The notes beneath the pieces were generated by a model. The model saw nothing but the letters and a program-made list of their open reading frames with translations, had not been told where the DNA came from and made no database searches. Below, one piece after another: positions 2,129 through 62,674 of a DNA stretch of 64,000 nucleotides. Every line of letters begins with the position of its first letter. Positions within the stretch are counted from its first letter, which is position 1. This DNA comes from Escherichia phage T4_ev151, in sequence record LR597660; one strand, given 5' to 3'. A program made the position numbers and the translations under genes.

Positions 2129-2158
2129 ATTATACCACATCCTTGTGGTAAAGTAAAC
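2129..2158 (-). promoter_or_regulatory. sigma70-type early promoter (-35 GTTTAC, 18-bp spacer, extended -10 TGTGGTATAAT) for rIIA.1/rIIA
   Basis: plus-strand attata 2129-2134 and gtaaac 2153-2158; 30-nt near-identical copy at 46104-46133. Confidence 0.6.
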
Positions 2159-3978
2159 TACTGGCTCATCCATTCTTTGCGAAGGTCAGCATTATCTCCC
2201 ATGAGCATTTCAAAAAGCTCTTTCCAGTTCTCAGGAAGTTTAACAACATCATATACTGGATTTTGAATCATCTCACGATATTCAGATTTTTCCAAAGAGC
2301 CAAGTCCTTTAATATAACGGATGCTATGTTTAGGTAGAGCATCTTTGGCACTCTCATATTCAGCGACTGTATAAAACCATTCTTGTTTTTTACCGACCTG
2401 AGCGATGATTACAGGAGTTTTGACAAAGCGAATTCGTCCTTGCTCAAACAGTTCTGGCCAATTACTAAAAAATCCAAGAAGAGAAGGATAAATGCTTCCT
2501 AGACCATCATGGTCAGCATCAGTCATAATAGCAATATTATGATAATTCAAGTTTTCAGCTTTTTCACCAAGAACTAATCCAGTGATTGCGCAAATATCAA
2601 ATAGTTCTTTATTTTTAAGCATATCAGCATATGACATACCCCAACTGTTGAGAACTTTACCACGCAATGGATAACCACCATGAAGTTCTTTATCACGAAC
2701 ATCAATAAGATATCCGATAGCAGAATCACCCTCAGTCAAGAAAAGAGTAGTATCAGCATCTTTACCGCAAAGATTCGCTTTGATATGTTTATGAACTTTA
2801 GCTTTAGAAGCCTTTTTAGCTGCTTTAGTTTCAGCTGCTTTTTCTGCTGCCAATTTACGAGCTAGTGCAGCTTCAATAATCGGCATTAAAATTGCTTCAT
2901 TATTTAGAATAGCGCGTGAAATCTTTTTAGCATCAAGCTGAATATGACTACGAATTTCACCAAATGGAGAAGTCAAACGCTCTTTAGTCTGAGAATCAAA
3001 TCGCATGTTTTTCATATCACGAACAAACATAACGATAGTCAAACATTCTTTAACACGTGCTTTAGTTACATCAATTTTGAACTTGCGCTTGATTTGTGGA
3101 ATAAGGTCTTCACAAATATCATCCATAACGCAGTCAATGTGATGGCCACCATTCTTAGTATGAATGTTATTGACGTATGTTAATTGACGAAAACCATCTG
3201 GTGAACGACCAACCGCAATAGAACAATTTTCTTGTTCTTGAACAATAGCATGCTCATCATATTGGCGTGCATATTTCTTAAAATTACCCTGAACCTTTTT
3301 ACCATTAAAGGTAAATTGAATATCAGGATAAACTACTGCAAGTGTCTGGAGACGATCTAGTGTAATGTCAAGATAAACTTGAGATAGCTCATTAGTTTCA
3401 AATGACATAAAATCAGGAATGAAAGTAACGCGAGTTCCTTTCCATTTTCCAGGAATAGTTTCCCAGGATTTATTTTCCATGCCATTTGAACAACGAACTA
3501 CAATATTATTTTGACCATCGCCAGTTTCACCGACAAACATCACAGAAAAAATGTTAGTTAAACTAGAACCAACACCATTCATACCACCGGTGACACGTTC
3601 TTTATCATCACCAAAGTTACCACCCGCTTTTGGAATAGTCCAAGCAGCAACTGGACCAGGAATTTCTTCACCGGTAGGTGTTTTAACCATCGCTTGTGGA
3701 ATACCACGACCGTTATCTTCAACTGTTACTTGATTGTTTTTGATAGTAACATTAATTTTATTTGCGAATTTAAACTTAGTACGAATACCTTCATCTACTG
3801 AGTTATCGATAATTTCATCAATAAGCTTAACAAGACCAGGTACATACTGAACACTTTCCCATTTACCAAACAGAAAGCGCTCATGCATTTCATTAGCAGA
3901 AGAGCCAATATACATGCCGCTACGCTTTTTGATATGTTCAATATCGCTCAGAATTTTAATTTCATTCTTAATCATCAC
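2158..3978 (-). CDS. 39: DNA topoisomerase II large (ATPase) subunit, uninterrupted 39+60 fusion
   Basis: 606 aa; GHKL motif IDNSVDEG; C-terminal third (IAIMTDADHDGLGSIYPSLLGFFSNWPELF...) is the segment encoded separately by gene 60 in T4; single continuous frame. Confidence 0.9.
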   Translation of the reverse strand: MMIKNEIKILSDIEHIKKRSGMYIGSSANEMHERFLFGKWESVQYVPGLVKLIDEIIDNSVDEGIRTKFKFANKINVTIKNNQVTVEDNGRGIPQAMVKTPTGEEIPGPVAAWTIPKAGGNFGDDKERVTGGMNGVGSSLTNIFSVMFVGETGDGQNNIVVRCSNGMENKSWETIPGKWKGTRVTFIPDFMSFETNELSQVYLDITLDRLQTLAVVYPDIQFTFNGKKVQGNFKKYARQYDEHAIVQEQENCSIAVGRSPDGFRQLTYVNNIHTKNGGHHIDCVMDDICEDLIPQIKRKFKIDVTKARVKECLTIVMFVRDMKNMRFDSQTKERLTSPFGEIRSHIQLDAKKISRAILNNEAILMPIIEAALARKLAAEKAAETKAAKKASKAKVHKHIKANLCGKDADTTLFLTEGDSAIGYLIDVRDKELHGGYPLRGKVLNSWGMSYADMLKNKELFDICAITGLVLGEKAENLNYHNIAIMTDADHDGLGSIYPSLLGFFSNWPELFEQGRIRFVKTPVIIAQVGKKQEWFYTVAEYESAKDALPKHSIRYIKGLGSLEKSEYREMIQNPVYDVVKLPENWKELFEMLMGDNADLRKEWMSQ

Positions 3979-4027
3979 TTATCCTCGTTTGGTTTCGGGA
4001 ATATTATACTCCGGTAATCATAAAGCT

Positions 4028-4045
4028 AAAGGCCCGAAGGCCTTT
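4028..4045 (-). terminator. GC hairpin with UUCG loop between 39.1-position ORF and gene 39
   Basis: aaggcccgaaggcctttt inverted repeat. Confidence 0.45.
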
Positions 4046-4314
4046 TATTTAAAACGAATAGTTGAATCCTTAAAGAACAGCCCAGAACATACTGTTCCTT
4101 CTACTTTCTGCCCAGTAGGTCCAACAGCACGAAATCCAGTATGTTGGAAATCATTTTCAGAGCAACCGAACCAGTTATATCCAGTGATTTCAATATTCGT
4201 AAAACCACTTGATGATAAAATTTTAGTTGCATTATCAGCATCAGTGCATCCTACTAAAGATACTGCTAATACTAATGCTGCGATAGAACGATTAACATAT
4301 TTCATAATTTTCAC
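4045..4314 (-). CDS. putative lipoprotein
   Basis: 89 aa; signal peptide with lipobox LVGC. Confidence 0.5.
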   Translation of the reverse strand: MKIMKYVNRSIAALVLAVSLVGCTDADNATKILSSSGFTNIEITGYNWFGCSENDFQHTGFRAVGPTGQKVEGTVCSGLFFKDSTIRFK

Positions 4315-4682
4315 TTAAATTTAATGGCTTGAAGGAGACTAATAATTCTTAAACGGCTTCTTTCATCTTTAACTGTAAAAGAAAGAGGGTCGCCAGATTT
4401 CATAGTAATAGTGCATTCAAAATCAAAATCTTCTGTGACTTCTTCGAAGAAGTCAAATTCTTCATCATAAATTAGAACATTACTCTGACAACTATGAAGA
4501 ATTTTTCCATCATTTCCAGATGCTGTACTAATCATTATAACATTATGACCTTTCATATCTTCAACGATAAATTCACTAGTCAATATTACAGCATTAATAG
4601 AACTATTCCTATTACTAGCAGAAAGTAGATATTTCTGTTCTTCACCTTCACGAATGCAATATTTCTTACCGATTTTAAACAT
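4311..4682 (-). CDS. hypothetical protein
   Basis: 123-aa ORF, ATGA overlap with downstream gene. Confidence 0.45.
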   Translation of the reverse strand: MFKIGKKYCIREGEEQKYLLSASNRNSSINAVILTSEFIVEDMKGHNVIMISTASGNDGKILHSCQSNVLIYDEEFDFFEEVTEDFDFECTITMKSGDPLSFTVKDERSRLRIISLLQAIKFK

Positions 4683-4684
4683 AA

Positions 4685-4861
4685 TTACCCTTTAAGTAAG
4701 TCGTAAAAACCACCATTCACATGCTTAGGAGCAGAAGGCCGACGAGTAGACAAACGATGACATTTAGGGCAAACATCATTTTCTCGTTCAGAAATCTTTT
4801 TAATTTTTTCATATTCATGCCCGCAATCTTCGGATTGGCATTTATAATCATACATTGGCAT
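4685..4861 (-). CDS. small zinc-ribbon protein (CxxC...CxxC), below ORF-track size cut-off
   Basis: my translation MPMYDYKCQSEDCGHEYEKIKKISERENDVCPKCHRLSTRRPSAPKHVNGGFYDLLKG; fills gap between flanking genes. Confidence 0.45.
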   Translation of the reverse strand: MPMYDYKCQSEDCGHEYEKIKKISERENDVCPKCHRLSTRRPSAPKHVNGGFYDLLKG

Positions 4862-4863
4862 AA

Positions 4864-5289
4864 TTATTCCTTAAAGTGTGCTTTCAGCATTTGATACAAG
4901 GACCATGCCTGTTCATTATTTTCAATAGTAACTTTCATGACAGGAAATTCTGTGAAATCTTCTATTTGTTCTTGCTCTTTCTCTTCCTGCTCTTGCTCTT
5001 CAGCTGCCTGGTATGGATTTTCAACTTCATCAAAGAATTCAGCTTCGCTAGTAGAAAGCCAAATAAAATCTTCATCCAAAATATCTTTACCGGAGGATAA
5101 TGCCAATCTTCCAGTAGATGACATAATTTTAGTTGGACGACCAAGATAGTCAATATCTATAACTTTAAAAGGTTCCATACCTAAACGTCGTGCATAAATT
5201 CCGTTTTCAGTATGGTCTTTAATAAAAGCTTCTTGAGCTTGTTTATTTTTAAATTGATACCATTTATTAACTTCAAATCTAATAGCCAT
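4864..5289 (-). CDS. hypothetical acidic protein (goF position)
   Basis: 141-aa ORF, Glu-rich [12 protein letters not shown] segment. Confidence 0.45.
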
Positions 5290-5504
5290 TAATAAATTTC
5301 CTTCCAGTAAGTTGTACCGTCTTCAGTGATTTCACGGAATACACTGTAAATCGGTTGTTTATCACCAACCTTTTCATACACATAAACCGAAGTCAAGTGA
5401 GTAAACTTGATGGTGTGTTCCTTTTGAACTACTACCAAATTTGGATCGAATAATACATCTTCAAATTCGTCATTAGTGCAGTTCTGAACAATTTTACGTT
5501 TCAT
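5289..5504 (-). CDS. hypothetical protein (cef position)
   Basis: 71-aa ORF. Confidence 0.4.
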
Positions 5505-5517
5505 TACAATTTCCTCA

Positions 5518-5799
5518 TTAATTGAACAGTGGAGCGATGCGTTTCAGAAGAGTAGCAGCACCTTTGGCAAATTTTACATCATGAAAAACAGTTTCTTCTT
5601 CCGTTACAACACGAGCTTTAATGTTTTCACAATCCCAATTTTTGCGAACAATCTTCAAAAGCTGCAGTAAATCTTTACATTCAGCAATATCGATAACACA
5701 TCCACGAGAATCTTCCATTATTGCACGATAACCATAAGCCATACCATAATCATTGAAAGATTGCTCGATGATAATTAAGTTTTCCATTTTATTCTCCAA
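5518..5799 (-). CDS. hypothetical protein
   Basis: 93-aa ORF downstream of promoter/stem-loop cassette at 5806-5860. Confidence 0.4.
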   Translation of the reverse strand: MENKMENLIIIEQSFNDYGMAYGYRAIMEDSRGCVIDIAECKDLLQLLKIVRKNWDCENIKARVVTEEETVFHDVKFAKGAATLLKRIAPLFN

Positions 5800-5884
5800 G
5801 TTGTTTTCTGTATCAGTAGTTGATATTGATATAGTACCATAATCAACTACTGATGTATATAGTTTTATGAAAAAATTTTAAACT

Positions 5885-6376
5885 TTATGCATAACGAGCT
5901 TTGCTATAGTGTTTAATCCAGCTTTCAGGAATGACTTTGTATGTTCCTAAAAATACCGTGTTGTACAACTTAACACCGTCTTCTACCCATTGATCGGTAA
6001 TGTATGCACACATAGCGCGAGTACGGTTAACAACACCTTCCTCACCTTCAGTAAATTCAAACTCATAAGGAGCAACGAACTTGATAGCTTGACCGAGTTT
6101 CCACTTAAAGTCTACACCTACATGCGAAGTATCAATCGTTTCAATTCCTTTAGCGGGAACAGCTTTCAAAAACGCAGGCTCAAGAAATTTCCATCGAACA
6201 TAACCAAACTGAGGTTTAGACATTCCATCTTTAGGAATGATACGCACTTTTACTTCAGAATCTTCATCTTTAACACCATGTTTAAGCTGAATGCTTACGA
6301 CTTCAACCAATTTTCCTGCTGCCTTAGAACGGGATTTATCAGATACACGAGCAATTTCACCGATATTAATATTCAT
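5885..6376 (-). CDS. hypothetical protein, paralog of 6450-6884 (motB region)
   Basis: 163 aa; C-terminal ITDQWVEDGVKLYNTVFLGTYKVIPES resembles neighbour's VTDQWIEDGVELLNVVHAGEYSVVPRS. Confidence 0.5.
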   Translation of the reverse strand: MNINIGEIARVSDKSRSKAAGKLVEVVSIQLKHGVKDEDSEVKVRIIPKDGMSKPQFGYVRWKFLEPAFLKAVPAKGIETIDTSHVGVDFKWKLGQAIKFVAPYEFEFTEGEEGVVNRTRAMCAYITDQWVEDGVKLYNTVFLGTYKVIPESWIKHYSKARYA

Positions 6377-15743: not shown

Positions 15744-15777
15744 TATTTTTCCTTTCAATTCATGGGTTAGTAGATTA

Positions 15778-15803
15778 ATTATACAATAAATATATAAAGC
15801 AAT
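15778..15803 (-). promoter_or_regulatory. possible MotA-dependent middle promoter for gene 56
   Basis: minus-strand ATTGCTTTA MotA-box-like element upstream of TATAAT. Confidence 0.3.
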
Positions 15804-15814
15804 AAGGAGGACAT

Positions 15815-16015
15815 ATGGTACAAAAATTAATGGCACTTATTAATGCCATAAAAGGTAATAAGAAACGTATAGCTTTTACTATTTCTGCTATGATAGGAAT
15901 TTTACTCTGGAACTTTATTTTATCACCTGTTGCAATTGCACATGGTATTAATATTCCAGTAGTTACTCTTGATACATTCGTAGATTTAGCATTTGCTTTA
16001 GTTGGGTTAATTTAA
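15815..16015 (+). CDS. small hydrophobic membrane protein, plus strand
   Basis: 66 aa; AGGAGG RBS 5 nt before ATG; two predicted TM helices; convergent with gene 61. Confidence 0.4.
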   Translation: MVQKLMALINAIKGNKKRIAFTISAMIGILLWNFILSPVAIAHGINIPVVTLDTFVDLAFALVGLI

Positions 16016-17040
16016 ATCTTAGCATATTTAGATAACCGCATTTTAGCCATCAACCCCTGGGCAATATTATTTTTCATATATTCCATAATTTGTTCAGGGG
16101 TTGCACCTTCCTTTCTAATCATATCATTGACGTCTTTTGATTTCCAGGGAGATTTATCCCAAAACATAACCCTTTCTCCTGCATCAACTAATTTAGTCAT
16201 TCGTTTGATAGTGTCAGGGTGACGAGGTTCATTATCTAAGACCCACACACGCCTATCTTTAAATGGAACAACTTCTAGGTCTAATTGACCACCCGTAATA
16301 GCTATACCATTTTCAATAAAAAGTGAATCTATAGGTCCTTCTAGAACATATACATCGCCATCTTTAACTCGTTCGACTCCATATATTTTTGTTGCCTCAG
16401 GATAAGCTTTAATGGTGATATATTTTTGAGGAGCATCTTTCTTTAATGCACGTCCTTGAAAAGACTCAGCTTTTCCATTAGCATTATAAATTGGAATAAC
16501 AAGACGAGGCTCAGAAATTTCCTTTTTGTATGTTCCCGGTGCTATGCTATTAACTAATTTAGGCCATTCGGTTGTAAACCAAAGATATTTCCATTTATCC
16601 TTTGGAATACAACGAGCTTTTACATATTTTATAATTGGATGGTCTTCCGCCAGTTTATCTAATCTAACACATGACGGAAGAGATTTAATTATTTTCTTCT
16701 CAGGTTGTTTAGGAAGTTCTTTAGGTTTTTCTACTGGACGACTTTTACCTTTTTCTTTTCTTATTTCAAAGATATACTCACGATATAAATCGGGTTCAAA
16801 CTCCTTTAAATATATTCCGATTGGTGCATGATAGTTACAGTTATAACAATGAATATTTCCTTCATTATTATCACCATAATACCATCCACGAGCTTTATTC
16901 TGATCGGTTTTTGAATCTCCACAAACAGGGCATCTAAACCGCAATTTAAAAGTTGAACTATTATTTACTTGTGTGAATTTAGGTAAATGAGCTAATGCAC
17001 GATACGCAAACTCATTATCAATCCAAGGTATTGATGACAT
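16012..17040 (-). CDS. 61: DNA primase
   Basis: 342 aa; N-terminal zinc ribbon CPVCGDS...CYNC and Toprim-like core. Confidence 0.9.
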   Translation of the reverse strand: MSSIPWIDNEFAYRALAHLPKFTQVNNSSTFKLRFRCPVCGDSKTDQNKARGWYYGDNNEGNIHCYNCNYHAPIGIYLKEFEPDLYREYIFEIRKEKGKSRPVEKPKELPKQPEKKIIKSLPSCVRLDKLAEDHPIIKYVKARCIPKDKWKYLWFTTEWPKLVNSIAPGTYKKEISEPRLVIPIYNANGKAESFQGRALKKDAPQKYITIKAYPEATKIYGVERVKDGDVYVLEGPIDSLFIENGIAITGGQLDLEVVPFKDRRVWVLDNEPRHPDTIKRMTKLVDAGERVMFWDKSPWKSKDVNDMIRKEGATPEQIMEYMKNNIAQGLMAKMRLSKYAKI

Positions 17041-17044
17041 TTTT

Positions 17045-17209
17045 ACTCTTCTTTTTCTTTAGATTCCTCTTTCTTCTTTTTAGGAATCTGTTCAGGACCT
17101 TTATTTACTACAGCGCCCGACGTTGTTCCAGTAGAGATATTTTCAGGATTACCACCTGAATCTCCAGCTACCATATCTTCTTTAATAAATTCTTTATATG
17201 TTTTCATAT
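17045..17209 (-). CDS. small hypothetical protein (not in ORF track)
   Basis: my translation MKTYKEFIKEDMVAGDSGGNPENISTGTTSGAVVNKGPEQIPKKKKEESKEKEE. Confidence 0.3.
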
Positions 17210-17565
17210 TAACCTCTATTCATAAAAGCATTAAAAATTTGGTCATCAATAGATGGAATAGCAACCTTTTCGGCATCATTTAGCAAATCATTAATTTCAT
17301 CAGATAGCATAACACATGTGCCTTTATTTCCTGTAATTGTTACTGCACAATTACGAACGTTTTCTTTATTAAATTTTAGGTTAATATTTTCGTAATGAAA
17401 ATCCTTTAATGCTGAATATATTTTTAAAATAAAATTGTCTTTTACTACAATAAACCCAACCTCACTATTAAAACGTGGTTCATGGAAACTGTAATAAACC
17501 TTTTCATCTATAAAATCGTATGAAATTTTTTCCATTTTTAAATATGAAAATTCAGAACTATACAT
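17209..17565 (-). CDS. hypothetical protein (61.1/61.2 region)
   Basis: 118-aa ORF. Confidence 0.45.
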   Translation of the reverse strand: MYSSEFSYLKMEKISYDFIDEKVYYSFHEPRFNSEVGFIVVKDNFILKIYSALKDFHYENINLKFNKENVRNCAVTITGNKGTCVMLSDEINDLLNDAEKVAIPSIDDQIFNAFMNRG

Positions 17566-17577
17566 ACTAACCTCTAA

Positions 17578-17871
17578 TTACTCACCTACCACTTCAGCGA
17601 TGATATTTTTATTATTAAAGTTTTTATCGCAATACAGAACATAATTATACTGCATTACACCACCAGATTTAAGTTGTTTTTGCACTTCAGCTTTCATTTC
17701 AGGACGATCACGTTCAACGATATTCATAATATCCGCTTCAATTTGAATTTCAACTTCAGTCTGATCTGCAGTCATAGACCATTCGCACAAATCTTTGTCA
17801 TAACCCGCCATAGCAGGCTGAGCAGCGCAAGAAGATAAAGCAAAAATTGCAGCAAAGATAAATTTTTTCAT
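17578..17871 (-). CDS. sp: periplasmic Spackle-like protein
   Basis: 97 aa; cleavable signal peptide MKKFIFAAIFALSSCAAQPAMA; size and position as T4 sp. Confidence 0.6.
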   Translation of the reverse strand: MKKFIFAAIFALSSCAAQPAMAGYDKDLCEWSMTADQTEVEIQIEADIMNIVERDRPEMKAEVQKQLKSGGVMQYNYVLYCDKNFNNKNIIAEVVGE

Positions 17872-17899
17872 GATAATCTCCTCAGTAGTTTATGTTTAT

Positions 17900-17929
17900 A
17901 TAGTATCTCAATTTCCAATAAAAGTAAAC
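17900..17929 (-). promoter_or_regulatory. early promoter (-35 GTTTAC / -10 TACTAT)
   Basis: gtaaac 17924-17929. Confidence 0.45.
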
Positions 17930-17931
17930 AG

Positions 17932-18189
17932 TTATTTTAAAACTTCTGCATAATCACATGTTACAAACTGTTTCTCTAACTTGGCGATTTTACGAAAGTA
18001 TCTTTTGCATTGACGAATCTGTCGCTTTGTAGGGCGCACAGCAAACTTAATAAATTCCACTCGACCAAATGGAGGGCTTTCTTCTGCCGGAATATCTAAT
18101 ACTAATTCCCACGTATCTGCAATAAGTGCTTTGAATTGAGTATTTTTCCTGACATTATACGGAGTAGGTTTAAATAAAACGATATGCAT
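17932..18189 (-). CDS. small basic protein at 61.4 position (start moved to MHIVLF with GAGGA RBS)
   Basis: 85 aa, Lys/Arg-rich. Confidence 0.45.
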   Translation of the reverse strand: MHIVLFKPTPYNVRKNTQFKALIADTWELVLDIPAEESPPFGRVEFIKFAVRPTKRQIRQCKRYFRKIAKLEKQFVTCDYAEVLK

Positions 18190-18190
18190 A

Positions 18191-18373
18191 TTATCCTCGG
18201 CAATCCACTTCACATACCTTCTTGTCATCAATGAAAGCTTTAACTAGTGCTTTATTAACTTCAGCATATTGAGTAGTAGCCCATTGAACGTCATCTTTCA
18301 TCATTGTGATCTCTTTAGTAAACATGCTTTCGTTCTTAAACCACCCCATAAAAACTACCTTTACCAATTCCAT
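18191..18373 (-). CDS. dmd: Dmd-like antitoxin (discriminator of mRNA degradation)
   Basis: 60 aa; immediately downstream of gene 41 as in T4. Confidence 0.55.
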   Translation of the reverse strand: MELVKVVFMGWFKNESMFTKEITMMKDDVQWATTQYAEVNKALVKAFIDDKKVCEVDCRG

Positions 18374-18402
18374 AACAATCTCCTCATTTAACCAACAAGA
18401 CT

Positions 18403-18432
18403 ACTATACCATAGTCTTGTCAGCTTGTAAAC
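18403..18432 (-). promoter_or_regulatory. early promoter (-35 GTTTAC / -10 TATAGT)
   Basis: gtaaac 18427-18432. Confidence 0.5.
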
Positions 18433-19859
18433 TAAAATTTTAATTCATTTGCCAAAGCATCTAACTGAGCTCGAGCGGATTCGTTTCTTTGATAGCGATT
18501 CTGTTCAGCCTGAATTTGCTGTGAACCTGCTACTTCGTTCACTTCAGTTGGAGTAGAATCTTGTTCAATTTCTACCCATTTCTGATTTCCTTTTTGAACA
18601 CCCATCAAAAACTTATTCCATTTATTCTTATCACCGTATCGTGATTTGATTTGCTTAATGAGTTGTTGTTCAGCAGCTGCTAGCTCCTCGGTTTCAATGA
18701 CCGCAAGCATAAAATCAGCTGTTGCTGGAAGACCGGCAGATTCTGCAATATCGCTCATGTTAACATCAGAAGAATCCCAAGCTTGTTTACCAACCTGTGC
18801 TGCAGTCCAAAGAACAGTTTCGGTTTCAACAGCAAGAGCACGTAATTCCTCTGCAATGGCTTTAACAGTTGTGTAACTATTTTCTGAGTAAACTCTAATG
18901 CGGCAAGATTTACAAATACCCAGATAGTCGACAATAATGATTGTTGGAACAAAATTCTTCTTGAGCTTTAATTCGTTTAAAAGCGATCGAAATGTATTAG
19001 CATCTGCTCCACCAGTAGGATACTGTTTAACTATTAAACGACCGAGAGTAGATTTCTCGCGCCATTTTTCCATTTTTCCTTTATACTCAGCGTAAGAAAT
19101 ATGCCCGTCATCAATGTCATCAAGAGAAACATCAAGCATATTAGCATCAATACGCTTAGCACAGACTTCTTCTGCCATTTCCATGGAAATGTAAAGAACA
19201 TTATGTCCGAGCTGCAAATAATCTGCTGCCAATGAACACAGACCTAATGACTTACCGACGTTAACACCAGCCATTAAAACGTTCAGTGTTCCAGTTTCAG
19301 CTCCACCTTTAGTAATTTTATTTAGAATTTTGAGTCTAAATGGAACCTTACGAGCTTTATTCATATAAGATAGCCAACGTGCTTCGTAGTCATCCATCCA
19401 ATCATGACCAACGTAACTATCAAATGAAATTGATAATGCTTGGCGCATGATGTCAGGAATAGCACCTACATCTGGCATTTTCTTATTTCGTTTTTCCGGA
19501 GGAAGCTCAGCATTAGTTTGAATTTCAATTATTTTAGACGTAGCATTAAACATCGCCCTTTGCTGAACATATTTTTCTGTTTCTTTTACTAACCAGCTAT
19601 GGTCTTCTGGAGAATCGGCTAGTTTCGAAATAAGTGTTTTTACACCAGAATATTCTGTTTCAGTAAATGAACTATTTTCTAATGCAACATTTAACGCATT
19701 AATAGATGGAACGCTATGGTACTCATTAACATGAGATTTAATTAATTTGAATGTATTTTTAGCTGGACCACTTTCAAAATATTCTGAATCCATATATGGC
19801 CAAACTTTTGAAAAATAAGCTTGATCAAATATGAGATGGGAAAGAATAATTTCTACCAC
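18432..19859 (-). CDS. 41: replicative DNA helicase (DnaB-like)
   Basis: 475 aa; Walker A GVNVGKS. Confidence 0.9.
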   Translation of the reverse strand: MVEIILSHLIFDQAYFSKVWPYMDSEYFESGPAKNTFKLIKSHVNEYHSVPSINALNVALENSSFTETEYSGVKTLISKLADSPEDHSWLVKETEKYVQQRAMFNATSKIIEIQTNAELPPEKRNKKMPDVGAIPDIMRQALSISFDSYVGHDWMDDYEARWLSYMNKARKVPFRLKILNKITKGGAETGTLNVLMAGVNVGKSLGLCSLAADYLQLGHNVLYISMEMAEEVCAKRIDANMLDVSLDDIDDGHISYAEYKGKMEKWREKSTLGRLIVKQYPTGGADANTFRSLLNELKLKKNFVPTIIIVDYLGICKSCRIRVYSENSYTTVKAIAEELRALAVETETVLWTAAQVGKQAWDSSDVNMSDIAESAGLPATADFMLAVIETEELAAAEQQLIKQIKSRYGDKNKWNKFLMGVQKGNQKWVEIEQDSTPTEVNEVAGSQQIQAEQNRYQRNESARAQLDALANELKF

Positions 19860-21464: not shown

Positions 21465-22313
21465 TTAATCAACTGCTATTGGATGAATAGCATTAAACTT
21501 ATGAAATGCTTCTGATTTTTCTTTACGCGAAACGCACATGCGAAGAACCTTTAATGGCTCGTCTTCTTCACCCAACGATTTTCGTTTTTCAATATTAGAA
21601 GTTTTCCAACGAGCTTGCTCTGGAAACTCTCTATTGATTTGCTCAAGCGCTCTATTATGTTTAGAATTACTACGAATTGAACTACACCCGCCAGGAGCTT
21701 GTGCTTTTCCAGATACAACTAGATATTTGAACAAGGCCAAATGCGGATAACCTTGATTAATTAAATTGAGAAATGCATACATATCTTCGCATAAATCAAT
21801 TTTTCCATACCCAATTTGTTCTGTCGTAAGTTTTCCGAGGTCATACCATGTATTCGTGAATCCATATGAATTTTCACGATAATTACCCCAAGATGAAGTA
21901 ATTTTAAAAATTGGTAGACGAGCATGGCCATGATAATATCCGCAATCCATGGCATCCTCAACATATTGAATCAATTCATAGAACTGTTCACGAGTTAATT
22001 GATTAATTTTATCTACGCGCCGTTTATCGTCTCTCTTTCGTATTGAACTCATACGGATAGTAGTATCATCGTCAATCATCCAGATTCGTTGACCTGCATA
22101 CATATCAGTAATTGCTTTACGAGTACCGGCAATTCCGTTTACATCATCAGGAATAGTTATAATTTTAGCTCTAGACCCATAGGCATCATAATAAGCTTTT
22201 TCTTCGTGTTCACGCACTACAATATGGGGTTCATAATCAGTCGGAAACATATCAAGGGCAGAAACTGCCCCTACACGTTGATAGCTTGGAATTACGAATT
22301 GAATCATTTCCAC
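21465..22313 (-). CDS. DxD-motif glycosyltransferase at the beta-gt locus
   Basis: 282 aa; WMIDDDTT DxD motif; sits between uvsX and 42; does not resemble T4 beta-gt N-terminus. Confidence 0.5.
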   Translation of the reverse strand: MEMIQFVIPSYQRVGAVSALDMFPTDYEPHIVVREHEEKAYYDAYGSRAKIITIPDDVNGIAGTRKAITDMYAGQRIWMIDDDTTIRMSSIRKRDDKRRVDKINQLTREQFYELIQYVEDAMDCGYYHGHARLPIFKITSSWGNYRENSYGFTNTWYDLGKLTTEQIGYGKIDLCEDMYAFLNLINQGYPHLALFKYLVVSGKAQAPGGCSSIRSNSKHNRALEQINREFPEQARWKTSNIEKRKSLGEEDEPLKVLRMCVSRKEKSEAFHKFNAIHPIAVD

Positions 22314-61184: not shown

Positions 61185-61658
61185 TTATTTGAATGATTTG
61201 ACGTACTGAATAGAGCCTTTGCTATTCACAAAGGCAATTTTACCATTTTTATTATACATGGTAGCAGTACGCTGATAACCATAAGTTTGTTTACCAGATT
61301 GATAACCAACTAATGCAAAATTATCTTCGCCCATTTTATTCTGTTTAGCGCGGATGCGTTCATGGCCATGTGCCATAAGAACCTTAGCATCACCAGTTGC
61401 AATGGATCGACGAGTTTTTTCATCTTCAACTGTATTAACAAAGTCGTCAAATGAATCAAATTTAGCATGAGATTTATTATACAGTTTTCCATCTACTGCA
61501 TAATTATATCCCTGTACATCCATCTCAACTTCTGTACCATCATCCAATACAGCAGTGATTTTTTGACCTTTTTTAAATTTCAAAAGATCAGTAAAAGATT
61601 CAGCAATAATTTGAGAATTAATAGCTGCTTCAGTAATAAATTCTTGATATGTTTTCAT
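61185..61658 (-). CDS. hypothetical protein
   Basis: 157-aa ORF. Confidence 0.45.
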   Translation of the reverse strand: MKTYQEFITEAAINSQIIAESFTDLLKFKKGQKITAVLDDGTEVEMDVQGYNYAVDGKLYNKSHAKFDSFDDFVNTVEDEKTRRSIATGDAKVLMAHGHERIRAKQNKMGEDNFALVGYQSGKQTYGYQRTATMYNKNGKIAFVNSKGSIQYVKSFK

Positions 61659-61667
61659 ATGTTTCCT

Positions 61668-62084
61668 TTAAATGTAAATATTTTTGCCGTAATACTTGTA
61701 CCAGTGTGGCTTCATTAAAATTTTTTCATCAAGTCGTTGTTGACTCAATTTAATAGCTGATTTGCATGGATTATAATCATTTTTCCATTCTGCTGGAATA
61801 TCGCTGATGTCAGGAACTTCAGTATCTTTTATACTGAACCCGCGTTTTAAGCATTCCGTTATAATGTCTGATTGACGCTTTCGCAAAAATTCTAACTTAT
61901 CGTAAAAGAAAGTAACATGACCAGAACCTAAAATAAACTCGGAAGATATTTTAAAATCTTTAACCCGCTTACCATTTGCAACATGTTTACGAACTATACC
62001 AAAAACACGCGGCAATTCACGGTATTCTGCGATTAAATGTTGATCAGCAAGTTCAGATACTAAAGTCAAATTAATACGAGTCAT
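61668..62084 (-). CDS. denV: endonuclease V (pyrimidine dimer DNA glycosylase)
   Basis: 138 aa; [17 protein letters not shown]...YKYYGK. Confidence 0.9.

Positions 62085-62143: not shown

Positions 62144-62674
<531 letters not shown>

Follow-up and report, generated by a model that had tools for sequence, protein, structure and literature searches.

The DNA between the replicative helicase gene 41 and the primase gene 61 of Escherichia phage T4_ev151 raises the question of whether the five small genes that lie there form a single island directed against host defences, and of which gene corresponds to which factor of phage T4. Positions are those of a 64,000-nucleotide (nt) stretch of sequence record LR597660, and "the window" denotes this whole stretch. 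The block occupies 17043-18373 on the minus strand and encodes, between genes 41 and 61, proteins of 60, 85, 97, 118 and 54 amino acids (aa). Our analysis indicated that it is very probably the hyperplastic accessory-gene slot between 41 and 61 of Tequatrovirus, in the T2 arrangement, and that among the five genes only dmd and tifA can be counted as proven anti-toxin factors. A preliminary description of this DNA had placed five small genes of these sizes between helicase 41 and primase 61, and all were found on the minus strand as described. Its bounds were right to within 2 nt; the start at 17045 falls within the stop codon of 61.1, 2 nt from the true start at 17043. The genes of the block and their two flanks are as follows.

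18432-19859, minus strand: gene 41, replicative helicase, upstream flank (Pfam DnaB_C, 63 bits; 472 of 475 aa identical to T4 gp41).
18191-18373, minus strand: dmd (61.5), a 60-aa antitoxin mimic directed against the RnlA and LsoA endoribonucleases (60 of 60 residues identical to T4 Dmd).
17932-18189, minus strand: tifA (61.4), an 85-aa RNA-binding inhibitor of ToxN, coupled to dmd (83 of 85 residues identical to T4 gp61.4).
17578-17871, minus strand: sp (61.3), Spackle, a secreted inhibitor of the gp5 tail lysozyme (93 of 97 residues identical to T4).
17209-17565, minus strand: the 118-aa gene of the T2 type ("RB32ORF033c"), a short paralogue of AdfA's C-terminal half (Pfam AdfA, hhalign).
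17043-17207, minus strand: 61.1, a 54-aa protein translationally coupled to gene 61 (52 of 54 residues identical to T4 gp61.1; PHROG 1823 over the full length).
16012-17040, minus strand: gene 61, DNA primase, downstream flank (340 of 342 aa identical to T4 gp61).

The five open reading frames (ORFs) are real genes and not chance ORFs. This followed from the family matches, the spread of the block among phages and the tight coupling of its genes. Pfam matches exceeding the curated cut-offs were obtained for four of the five proteins, and PHROG families matched each of the five from end to end. The 1.6-kb stretch holding the block was detected in 509 phage records, chiefly those of Escherichia and Shigella phages, with a top identity of 99.7%. 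Stop-to-start gaps of 1 to 2 nt were present at the dmd/tifA, 118-aa/61.1 and 61.1/61 junctions, and a Shine-Dalgarno sequence was present at each start.

It had also been held that the assignment of the ORFs could not be settled from sequence, and this proved wrong. Alignment with T4 61.1 to 61.5 revealed clear similarity, with four genes being 96 to 100% identical to close T4 counterparts and the gene in the fourth slot being related to AdfA only through the C-terminal part of that protein. Position, order, strand and early promoter region were the same as in the T4 series dmd-61.4-sp-61.2-61.1, but T4 carries the 208-aa adfA (61.2) in fourth place, where the window has the 118-aa paralogue together with a 12-nt spacer after sp. 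The T2 locus had the same content and spacing (41, dmd, 61.4, sp, the 118-aa gene, 61.1 and 61, plus a 66-aa convergent ORF) and was distinguished from the window by point differences only, the two 118-aa proteins being 94.9% identical. By these alignments, the 118-aa gene is the gene that T2 carries in the 61.2 slot and not T4 gp61.2. As the island concept has been published and T2 has the same arrangement, the finding of the block as such is already known, and the whole block may be taken merely to confirm a T2-like Tequatrovirus origin with a published anti-toxin island, adding little. It also tells against a functional reading of the block that the functions of the genes in this phage rest on near-identity to T4 and T2 proteins.

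The T4 block is indeed a home of counter-defence factors, as the preliminary description had said, and this is published for Dmd, TifA (61.4) and AdfA (61.2). Srikant et al. 2022 (eLife 11:e79549) proposed the region as an 'anti-TA island' and its remaining genes as attractive candidates; Dmd inhibits RnlA, 61.4 was renamed tifA and inhibits ToxN, and 61.2 is adfA, which acts against DarT (Srikant et al. 2022). For the block of T4_ev151, the idea of an anti-defence island stood for dmd and tifA, which are established, and in part for the 118-aa gene, which is a candidate; it did not stand for Spackle, and gp61.1 points elsewhere.

Dmd matched Pfam PF17587 with 156.9 bits (cut-off 27) over residues 1-60 of 60, and matched PDB entry 5hy3_B ('Antitoxin Dmd') over residues 1-60 with an E value of 1.8e-37, the structures of Dmd being 5hy3 and 5i8j. 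It would bind and block the RnlA and LsoA RNase toxins, as is established for the identical T4 protein. The stop codon of dmd is separated by 1 nt from the start of tifA, an ATG at 18189 (a program-made ORF list holds a 99-aa version started by TTG). TifA matched DUF7279 (PF23945) with 72.7 bits (cut-off 24.5), and a PDB search returned no relatives of TifA and none of AdfA. The roles of TifA residues 41, 55, 56 and 59 are published (PMC10853763). Direct reading of the sequence detected K55, R56 and R59, the basic cluster for RNA binding, and a Phe at interface residue 41, which is the weaker T4-type variant. In the published mechanism, ToxN and RNA are both bound and ToxN is held in a ribonucleoprotein complex. 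The protein of this phage would similarly bind ToxN and RNA and trap the toxin in an inactive ribonucleoprotein complex, as has been established for the T4 protein, which is 98% identical.

Spackle matched Pfam T4_Spackle (PF25676) with 150.9 bits, and structures are present in the PDB (6x6o, 6xc0, 6xc1, 7cn6 and 7cn7). Two of the four changes relative to T4 fall in the signal peptide, while Cys29 and Cys81 and the contact residues S32, M33, T34, A35, Q37 and N76 were all kept (by comparison with PMC7677548). According to published work, Spackle acts in the periplasm, where it inhibits the gp5 tail lysozyme, and mediates superinfection exclusion. The window protein would be exported to the periplasm and would inhibit the gp5 lysozyme of superinfecting T-even phages, as is established for T4, and on this analysis it is to be regarded as a superinfection-exclusion factor and not as an anti-defence factor. 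In RB69, the slot between 41 and 61 (2318-5899 of the RB69 record) was observed to hold 11 genes, including imm and imm.1 adjoining sp, four RB69-specific ORFs and a 92-aa 61.1. The presence of imm and imm.1 there indicated that the slot gathers exclusion genes besides anti-toxin genes.

An anti-DarT factor had likewise been expected in this block. Full-length adfA (61.2) was absent, its slot being occupied by a half-size paralogue, and tblastn with T4 gp61.2 detected no further AdfA-like sequence in the window. The 118-aa protein matched Pfam AdfA (PF23813) with 34.4 bits (cut-off 27) at positions 113-211 only of the 211 positions of the profile, and precomputed PF23813 matches were also present on clusters of its homologues. 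Comparison of the 118-aa family with the full AdfA proteins of T4, RB69 and R5505 by hhalign (98% probability, E value of 2.4e-13) aligned residues 23-118 with AdfA 111-208. A separate PHROG family spans the 118-aa protein end to end. With T4 gp61.2 (208 aa) the last 14 residues were common and similarity beyond them was weak. The alignment indicated that the N-terminal half of full AdfA, ~95-110 residues, is missing. A stretch of apparent AdfA homology upstream of the 118-aa start in tblastn was rejected as spurious, as it passes the sp stop codon into the C terminus of sp, which lies in the same frame by chance.

Compared with AdfA (PF23813; RB69 and T4 gp61.2), the window protein thus has a homologous C-terminal domain with ~30-35% identity, an identical tail (IDDQIFNAFMNRG) and the same slot, but it is without the N-terminal half and has Asn at the His/Arg164 specificity switch of AdfA. 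T2 was described as naturally without an adfA homologue (Johannesman et al.). By the matches reported here, T2 and this phage, more exactly, carry a half-size AdfA paralogue, so that phages described as lacking adfA, T2 included, in fact carry this shorter relative. The paralogue was not found in the literature searched, and we regard this as a modest observation.

The 118-aa gene was also present in phages with full-length adfA. In R5505 and many other phages, a 212-aa adfA and the 118-aa gene stand in tandem between sp and 61.1. Queries spanning the junctions detected sp directly beside the 118-aa gene in 140 records and adfA beside the 118-aa gene in 159 records, and full-length adfA was present in 487 phage records. 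As the two genes are often side by side, the 118-aa gene is a separate gene and not an allele of adfA. Two elements at the borders of the gene bear on how these arrangements arose.

17212-17253, minus strand: codons of the C-terminal tail SIDDQIFNAFMNRG, common to full AdfA; the last codons contain the Shine-Dalgarno sequence of 61.1.
17566-17577, minus strand: the 12-nt spacer TTAGAGGTTAGT between sp and the 118-aa gene (DNA alignment of the window, T4, R5505 and T2).

The tail was nearly invariant across AdfA, the 118-aa family and its relatives at 41-47% identity, with only I/V, N/K or R/K changes. In tandem phages, adfA and the 118-aa gene end in a direct repeat of ~48 bp that encodes SIDDQIFNAFMNRG and runs through the stop codon to the following Shine-Dalgarno sequence and ATG. 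In the spacer and the ATG after it, 13 of 14 positions agreed with the 3' end of adfA and the start codon that follows there (TAGAGGTTAATATG). The spacer is probably a relic of a deleted adfA that supplies the Shine-Dalgarno sequence of the 118-aa gene. This reading stays an inference because a simple deletion at a GAATA microhomology, considered and rejected as the origin of the sp/118-aa junction, did not reproduce that junction exactly. The T4 arrangement resembles a tandem form that has lost the body of the 118-aa gene, and we infer that the window has the tandem form minus adfA. The slot would evolve by gain and loss of cassettes, yielding adfA only (T4), adfA with the 118-aa gene (R5505) or the 118-aa gene only (T2 and the window). 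Recombination would be the likely route, as the repeated gene-end/gene-start junction (…AATAGAGGTTAATATG) is present at the cassette boundaries.

The tail was also observed to match the last 23 positions of a 145-aa family, PHROG 8539, with an E value of 0.002, and BFVD matches of 145 and 157 aa agreed with the presence of the tail in a third phage family. It may be a portable docking motif common to several small phage proteins, and its occurrence in AdfA, the 118-aa family and the 145-aa PHROG family suggests a common docking partner. Assignment of SIDDQIFNAFMNRG as a tail binding the gp45 clamp, by comparison with gp43 (SLDFLFG) and gp55 (SLDFLY), was rejected as the resemblance was too weak.

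The sequence of gp61.1 pointed to capsid-related features and to no anti-toxin feature. These features lie in two adjacent parts of the gene.

17178-17207, minus strand: codons 1-10 of 61.1, MKTYKEFIKE, resembling a capsid-targeting sequence (CTS) and ending in the gp21 motif I-K-E (8 of 10 residues as in IPII and IPIII).
17094-17177, minus strand: codons 11-38 of 61.1, DMVAGDSGGNPENISTGTTSGAVVNKGP, a copy of the N-terminal N-fist of mature gp23* (BLASTP and a family hidden Markov model).

The T4 internal proteins IPII and IPIII both begin with MKTYQEFIAE, to which MKTYKEFIKE of gp61.1 is identical at 8 of 10 positions. Mapping by Mullaney and Black, as set out in PMC9026906, assigned positions 4 and 7 of the CTS to targeting and positions 8 and 10 to processing. 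All four are kept in gp61.1, as Y4 and F7 for targeting and I8 and E10 for processing by gp21, giving the L/I-x-E cleavage motif of gp21. The hydrophobic-x-Glu motif was kept in 15 of 15 gp61.1 homologues, and only one other ORF in the 64-kb window had such a start, that of the internal virion protein at 61185-61658. Compared with IPII and IPIII, however, gp61.1 is far smaller (44 residues after the predicted cut) and lies in the replication cluster and not at the ip locus.

Because some records name its homologues 'major capsid domain-containing protein', gp61.1 was compared with T4 gp23. BLASTP aligned residues 2-38 of gp61.1 with gp23 residues 57-93 at 16 of 37 identical positions and an E value of 1e-8. 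A hidden Markov model of the 15 gp61.1 homologues, built without gp23, matched gp23 residues 58-94 with 27.9 bits and an E value of 5e-8 among 603 translated segments. The positions invariant between gp61.1 and gp23 were the cleavage Glu, G-D, I, G, G and G-P. In the published account of gp23, the region from 57 to 93 contains the end of the 65-residue propeptide, the gp21 site (L-T-E|A) and the whole N-fist (66-91), which, once the head has expanded, binds to four adjacent subunits and contributes to the Soc binding sites. In contrast to gp23, gp61.1 is a free-standing peptide without an HK97-fold body and continues into a lysine/glutamate-rich tail. Comparison of gp61.1 with the vertex protein gp24 detected no similarity, and a Pfam search with gp61.1 gave no match even at an E value of 10. 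The 28 core residues were nearly invariant across the 15 homologues, and a dN/dS of 0.09 against RB69, over a 36-codon core with synonymous sites near saturation, indicated strong purifying selection. The lysine-rich tail (17043-17090 in the window) was observed to differ in a T6-type form of 62 aa (P0011/P0013; KKKKRNLKKKKSKNVINTLD), a difference that looks like a frameshift in an A-rich run; across the T6-type forms only the CTS and the N-fist-like core were conserved.

Overall, gp61.1 is a conserved peptide in which a CTS and a gp21 cleavage site are followed by a copy of the gp23 N-fist and then by a lysine-rich tail. The likeness to the CTS and the N-fist, the conserved motif and the purifying selection led us to the tentative suggestion that gp61.1 is an unrecognised prohead-targeted peptide and not an anti-toxin; the CTS would direct it to the scaffolding core of the prohead, and cutting by gp21 after Glu10 would release a 44-residue N-fist-like peptide. 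This peptide could fill N-fist sites left empty beside the gp24 vertices or the portal or, alternatively, could be injected with the DNA as a mimic of the capsid protein. Three points weigh against prohead targeting. No report of gp61.1 in virions or of a link between gp61.1 and a CTS was found in the literature searched; 61.1 sits in an early replication operon and no late promoter motif was seen by sequence reading; and the CTS-like stretch of the RB69 homologue is not terminal, being preceded by an N-terminal extension of 35 residues. The same literature yielded neither a published function for gp61.1 nor a mention of its CTS/N-fist make-up, and a conserved T4 ORF that combines a CTS of the internal-protein type with the gp23 cleavage site and N-fist offers a directly testable hypothesis. 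An anti-defence gene working by mimicry, with gp61.1 serving as a decoy, was judged quite unlikely. Such a role would fit the significant homology with gp23 residues 58-94 under strong purifying selection, the position of 61.1 next to proven counter-defence genes and the fact that capsid proteins are known as defence triggers, Gol-Lit being an example (the Gol peptide presumably starts just after residue ~93). The copied segment, however, consists of the N-fist and the cleavage site and not of the Gol core, a capsid-targeting decapeptide is of no obvious need to a decoy, and experimental hints of mimicry were absent. It is hardly credible that 61.1 is a mere translational-coupling leader for gene 61 whose peptide sequence is irrelevant: the stop codon 2 nt before the start of gene 61, the short and compositionally disordered-looking peptide and the differing tail of the T6-type form would be accounted for, but neither the low dN/dS with near-saturated synonymous sites nor the near-invariance of the 28 core residues is expected of such a leader.

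For the 118-aa gene, the explanation to be set against a function of its own is that the ORF is a truncated pseudogene left over from the decay of adfA. The restriction of the match to the C-terminal half of AdfA, the shared last 14 residues and 3' DNA repeat, and the description of T2 as without adfA are in keeping with decay, which was nevertheless judged very unlikely in view of several results. In ~300 phage records the 118-aa reading frame was intact, whether or not full-length adfA was adjacent, and the gene has its own Shine-Dalgarno sequence and ATG. An exhaustive HMMER search of 1.8 billion representatives identified only three real relatives, intact homologues at 75%, 47% and 41% identity in which the core was conserved; full-length AdfA was not reached by this search, and two of its matches, long repetitive proteins, were rejected as compositional noise. 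The pN/pS of the gene was 0.23-0.40. AF2 predicted a compact domain of five strands and two helices (pLDDT 83, pTM 0.72), with the tail forming a separate low-confidence helix at 106-115. Structural matches of this model in BFVD were the protein's own family and a 212-aa phage protein of AdfA size, and comparison of the model with PDB structures returned nothing informative. As the body of the protein is only ~30% identical to AdfA, it would be an old diverged paralogue and not a recent truncation. Several results thus predict a functional gene, whose product would be a free-standing C-terminal domain of AdfA with the invariant tail kept and the N-terminal ~95 residues gone. Published T2 genetics bear on its target: T2 deleted for adfN, which keeps the 95%-identical 118-aa gene, loses four logs on DarTG1, and therefore the 118-aa protein probably does not neutralise the DarT1 tested at native levels. 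Binding of DarT1 by AdfA is decided by RB69 R164, which must be His, and T4 AdfA at native level is without phenotype (Johannesman et al.). Asn72 of the 118-aa protein aligned with RB69 AdfA residue 164 in both the MAFFT and hhalign alignments, which detracts from the case for an inhibitor; among distant relatives, this position is His in P0005 and Asp in P0006 and P0007. The residue at position 72, which is N, H or D, may tune the free-standing module to a DarT-like toxin or to a toxin of another kind, and by analogy with AdfA our best guess is that the protein would bind or inhibit some host defence protein other than the DarT1 tested. The ~300 phages with this gene, about half of which carry it beside full adfA, represent a natural experiment on the parts of AdfA and make its product a candidate inhibitor of some defence. 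It is unlikely that the five small genes together make up a single anti-defence island in which each one neutralises a host toxin or defence system. Dmd and TifA are proven, AdfA of T4 and RB69 binds DarT1, the Pfam score places the 118-aa protein in the AdfA family, and Srikant et al. 2022 proposed an 'anti-TA island' with the other genes as candidates. On the other side, the target of Spackle is the lysozyme of another phage and not host immunity, full-length adfA is absent from the window, T2 without adfN is sensitive to DarTG1 despite the retained 118-aa gene, and gp61.1 resembles capsid components. None of the five proteins matched the PADLOC or NCBIfam libraries, and the PADLOC result carries little weight either way as that library covers defence systems and not counter-defence.

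The block would be transcribed early, jointly with the replication genes, and three sequence elements lie in its spacers.

18403-18431, minus strand: early sigma-70-type promoter-like site, TTTACA-17-TATAGT with an extended TG (best site in a consensus scan, 10 of 12 positions).
18390-18425, minus strand: 15-bp perfect hairpin in the 41-dmd spacer (RNA folding free energy of -18.9 kcal/mol, z score of -3.5 against shuffled sequences).
17900-17929, minus strand: weak promoter-like site, GTTTACT-17-TACTAT, in the 60-nt tifA-sp spacer (putative, by sequence reading; 8 of 12 positions, below the scan threshold).

The T4 dmd-tifA genes are driven by an early promoter upstream of dmd (Srikant et al. 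2022), and the site at 18403-18431 matches this promoter. The hairpin coincides in part with the dmd early promoter, at the promoter's spacer and -10 element. Only transcripts reading through from gene 41 would fold into it, and it is probably the 3' end or a stabiliser of the gene 41 transcript. A scan of the block region detected no intrinsic terminators, and an Rfam search of the block, the hairpin included, gave no match.

Several other parts of the window differed from T4. At 61185-61658 on the minus strand, between denV (61668-62084) and the lysozyme gene e (62144-62638), a 157-aa internal virion protein (PHROG 3155, DUF7412) starts with the CTS MKTYQEFITE, where T4 has ipII and ipIII; the hypervariable ip locus has another internal-protein cassette here. 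The large-subunit gene of topoisomerase II, gene 39, was a single ORF of 605 aa at 2158-3975 on the minus strand, with residues 452-605 matching a gp60-type PHROG. The T4-specific 39/60 split, with its mobA insertion and 50-nt translational bypass, is therefore absent. The T4 dam slot between gene 56 (dCTPase) and gene 61, at 15744-16015, held only a 66-aa ORF on the plus strand (15815-16015; PHROG 2024), the 3' end of which shares 4 nt with the end of gene 61, and tblastn with the C-terminal 208 aa of T4 Dam detected nothing anywhere in the window. Directly after uvsX, at 21465-22307 on the minus strand, lies a beta-glucosyl-hydroxymethylcytosine (HMC)-alpha-glucosyltransferase gene (PHROG 842, E value of 1.5e-88), in the place where T4 has segA and a beta-glucosyltransferase. 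From this enzyme, we infer that the phage makes gentiobiosyl-HMC DNA of the T2/T6 type, which would fit the T2-like block between dmd and gene 61.

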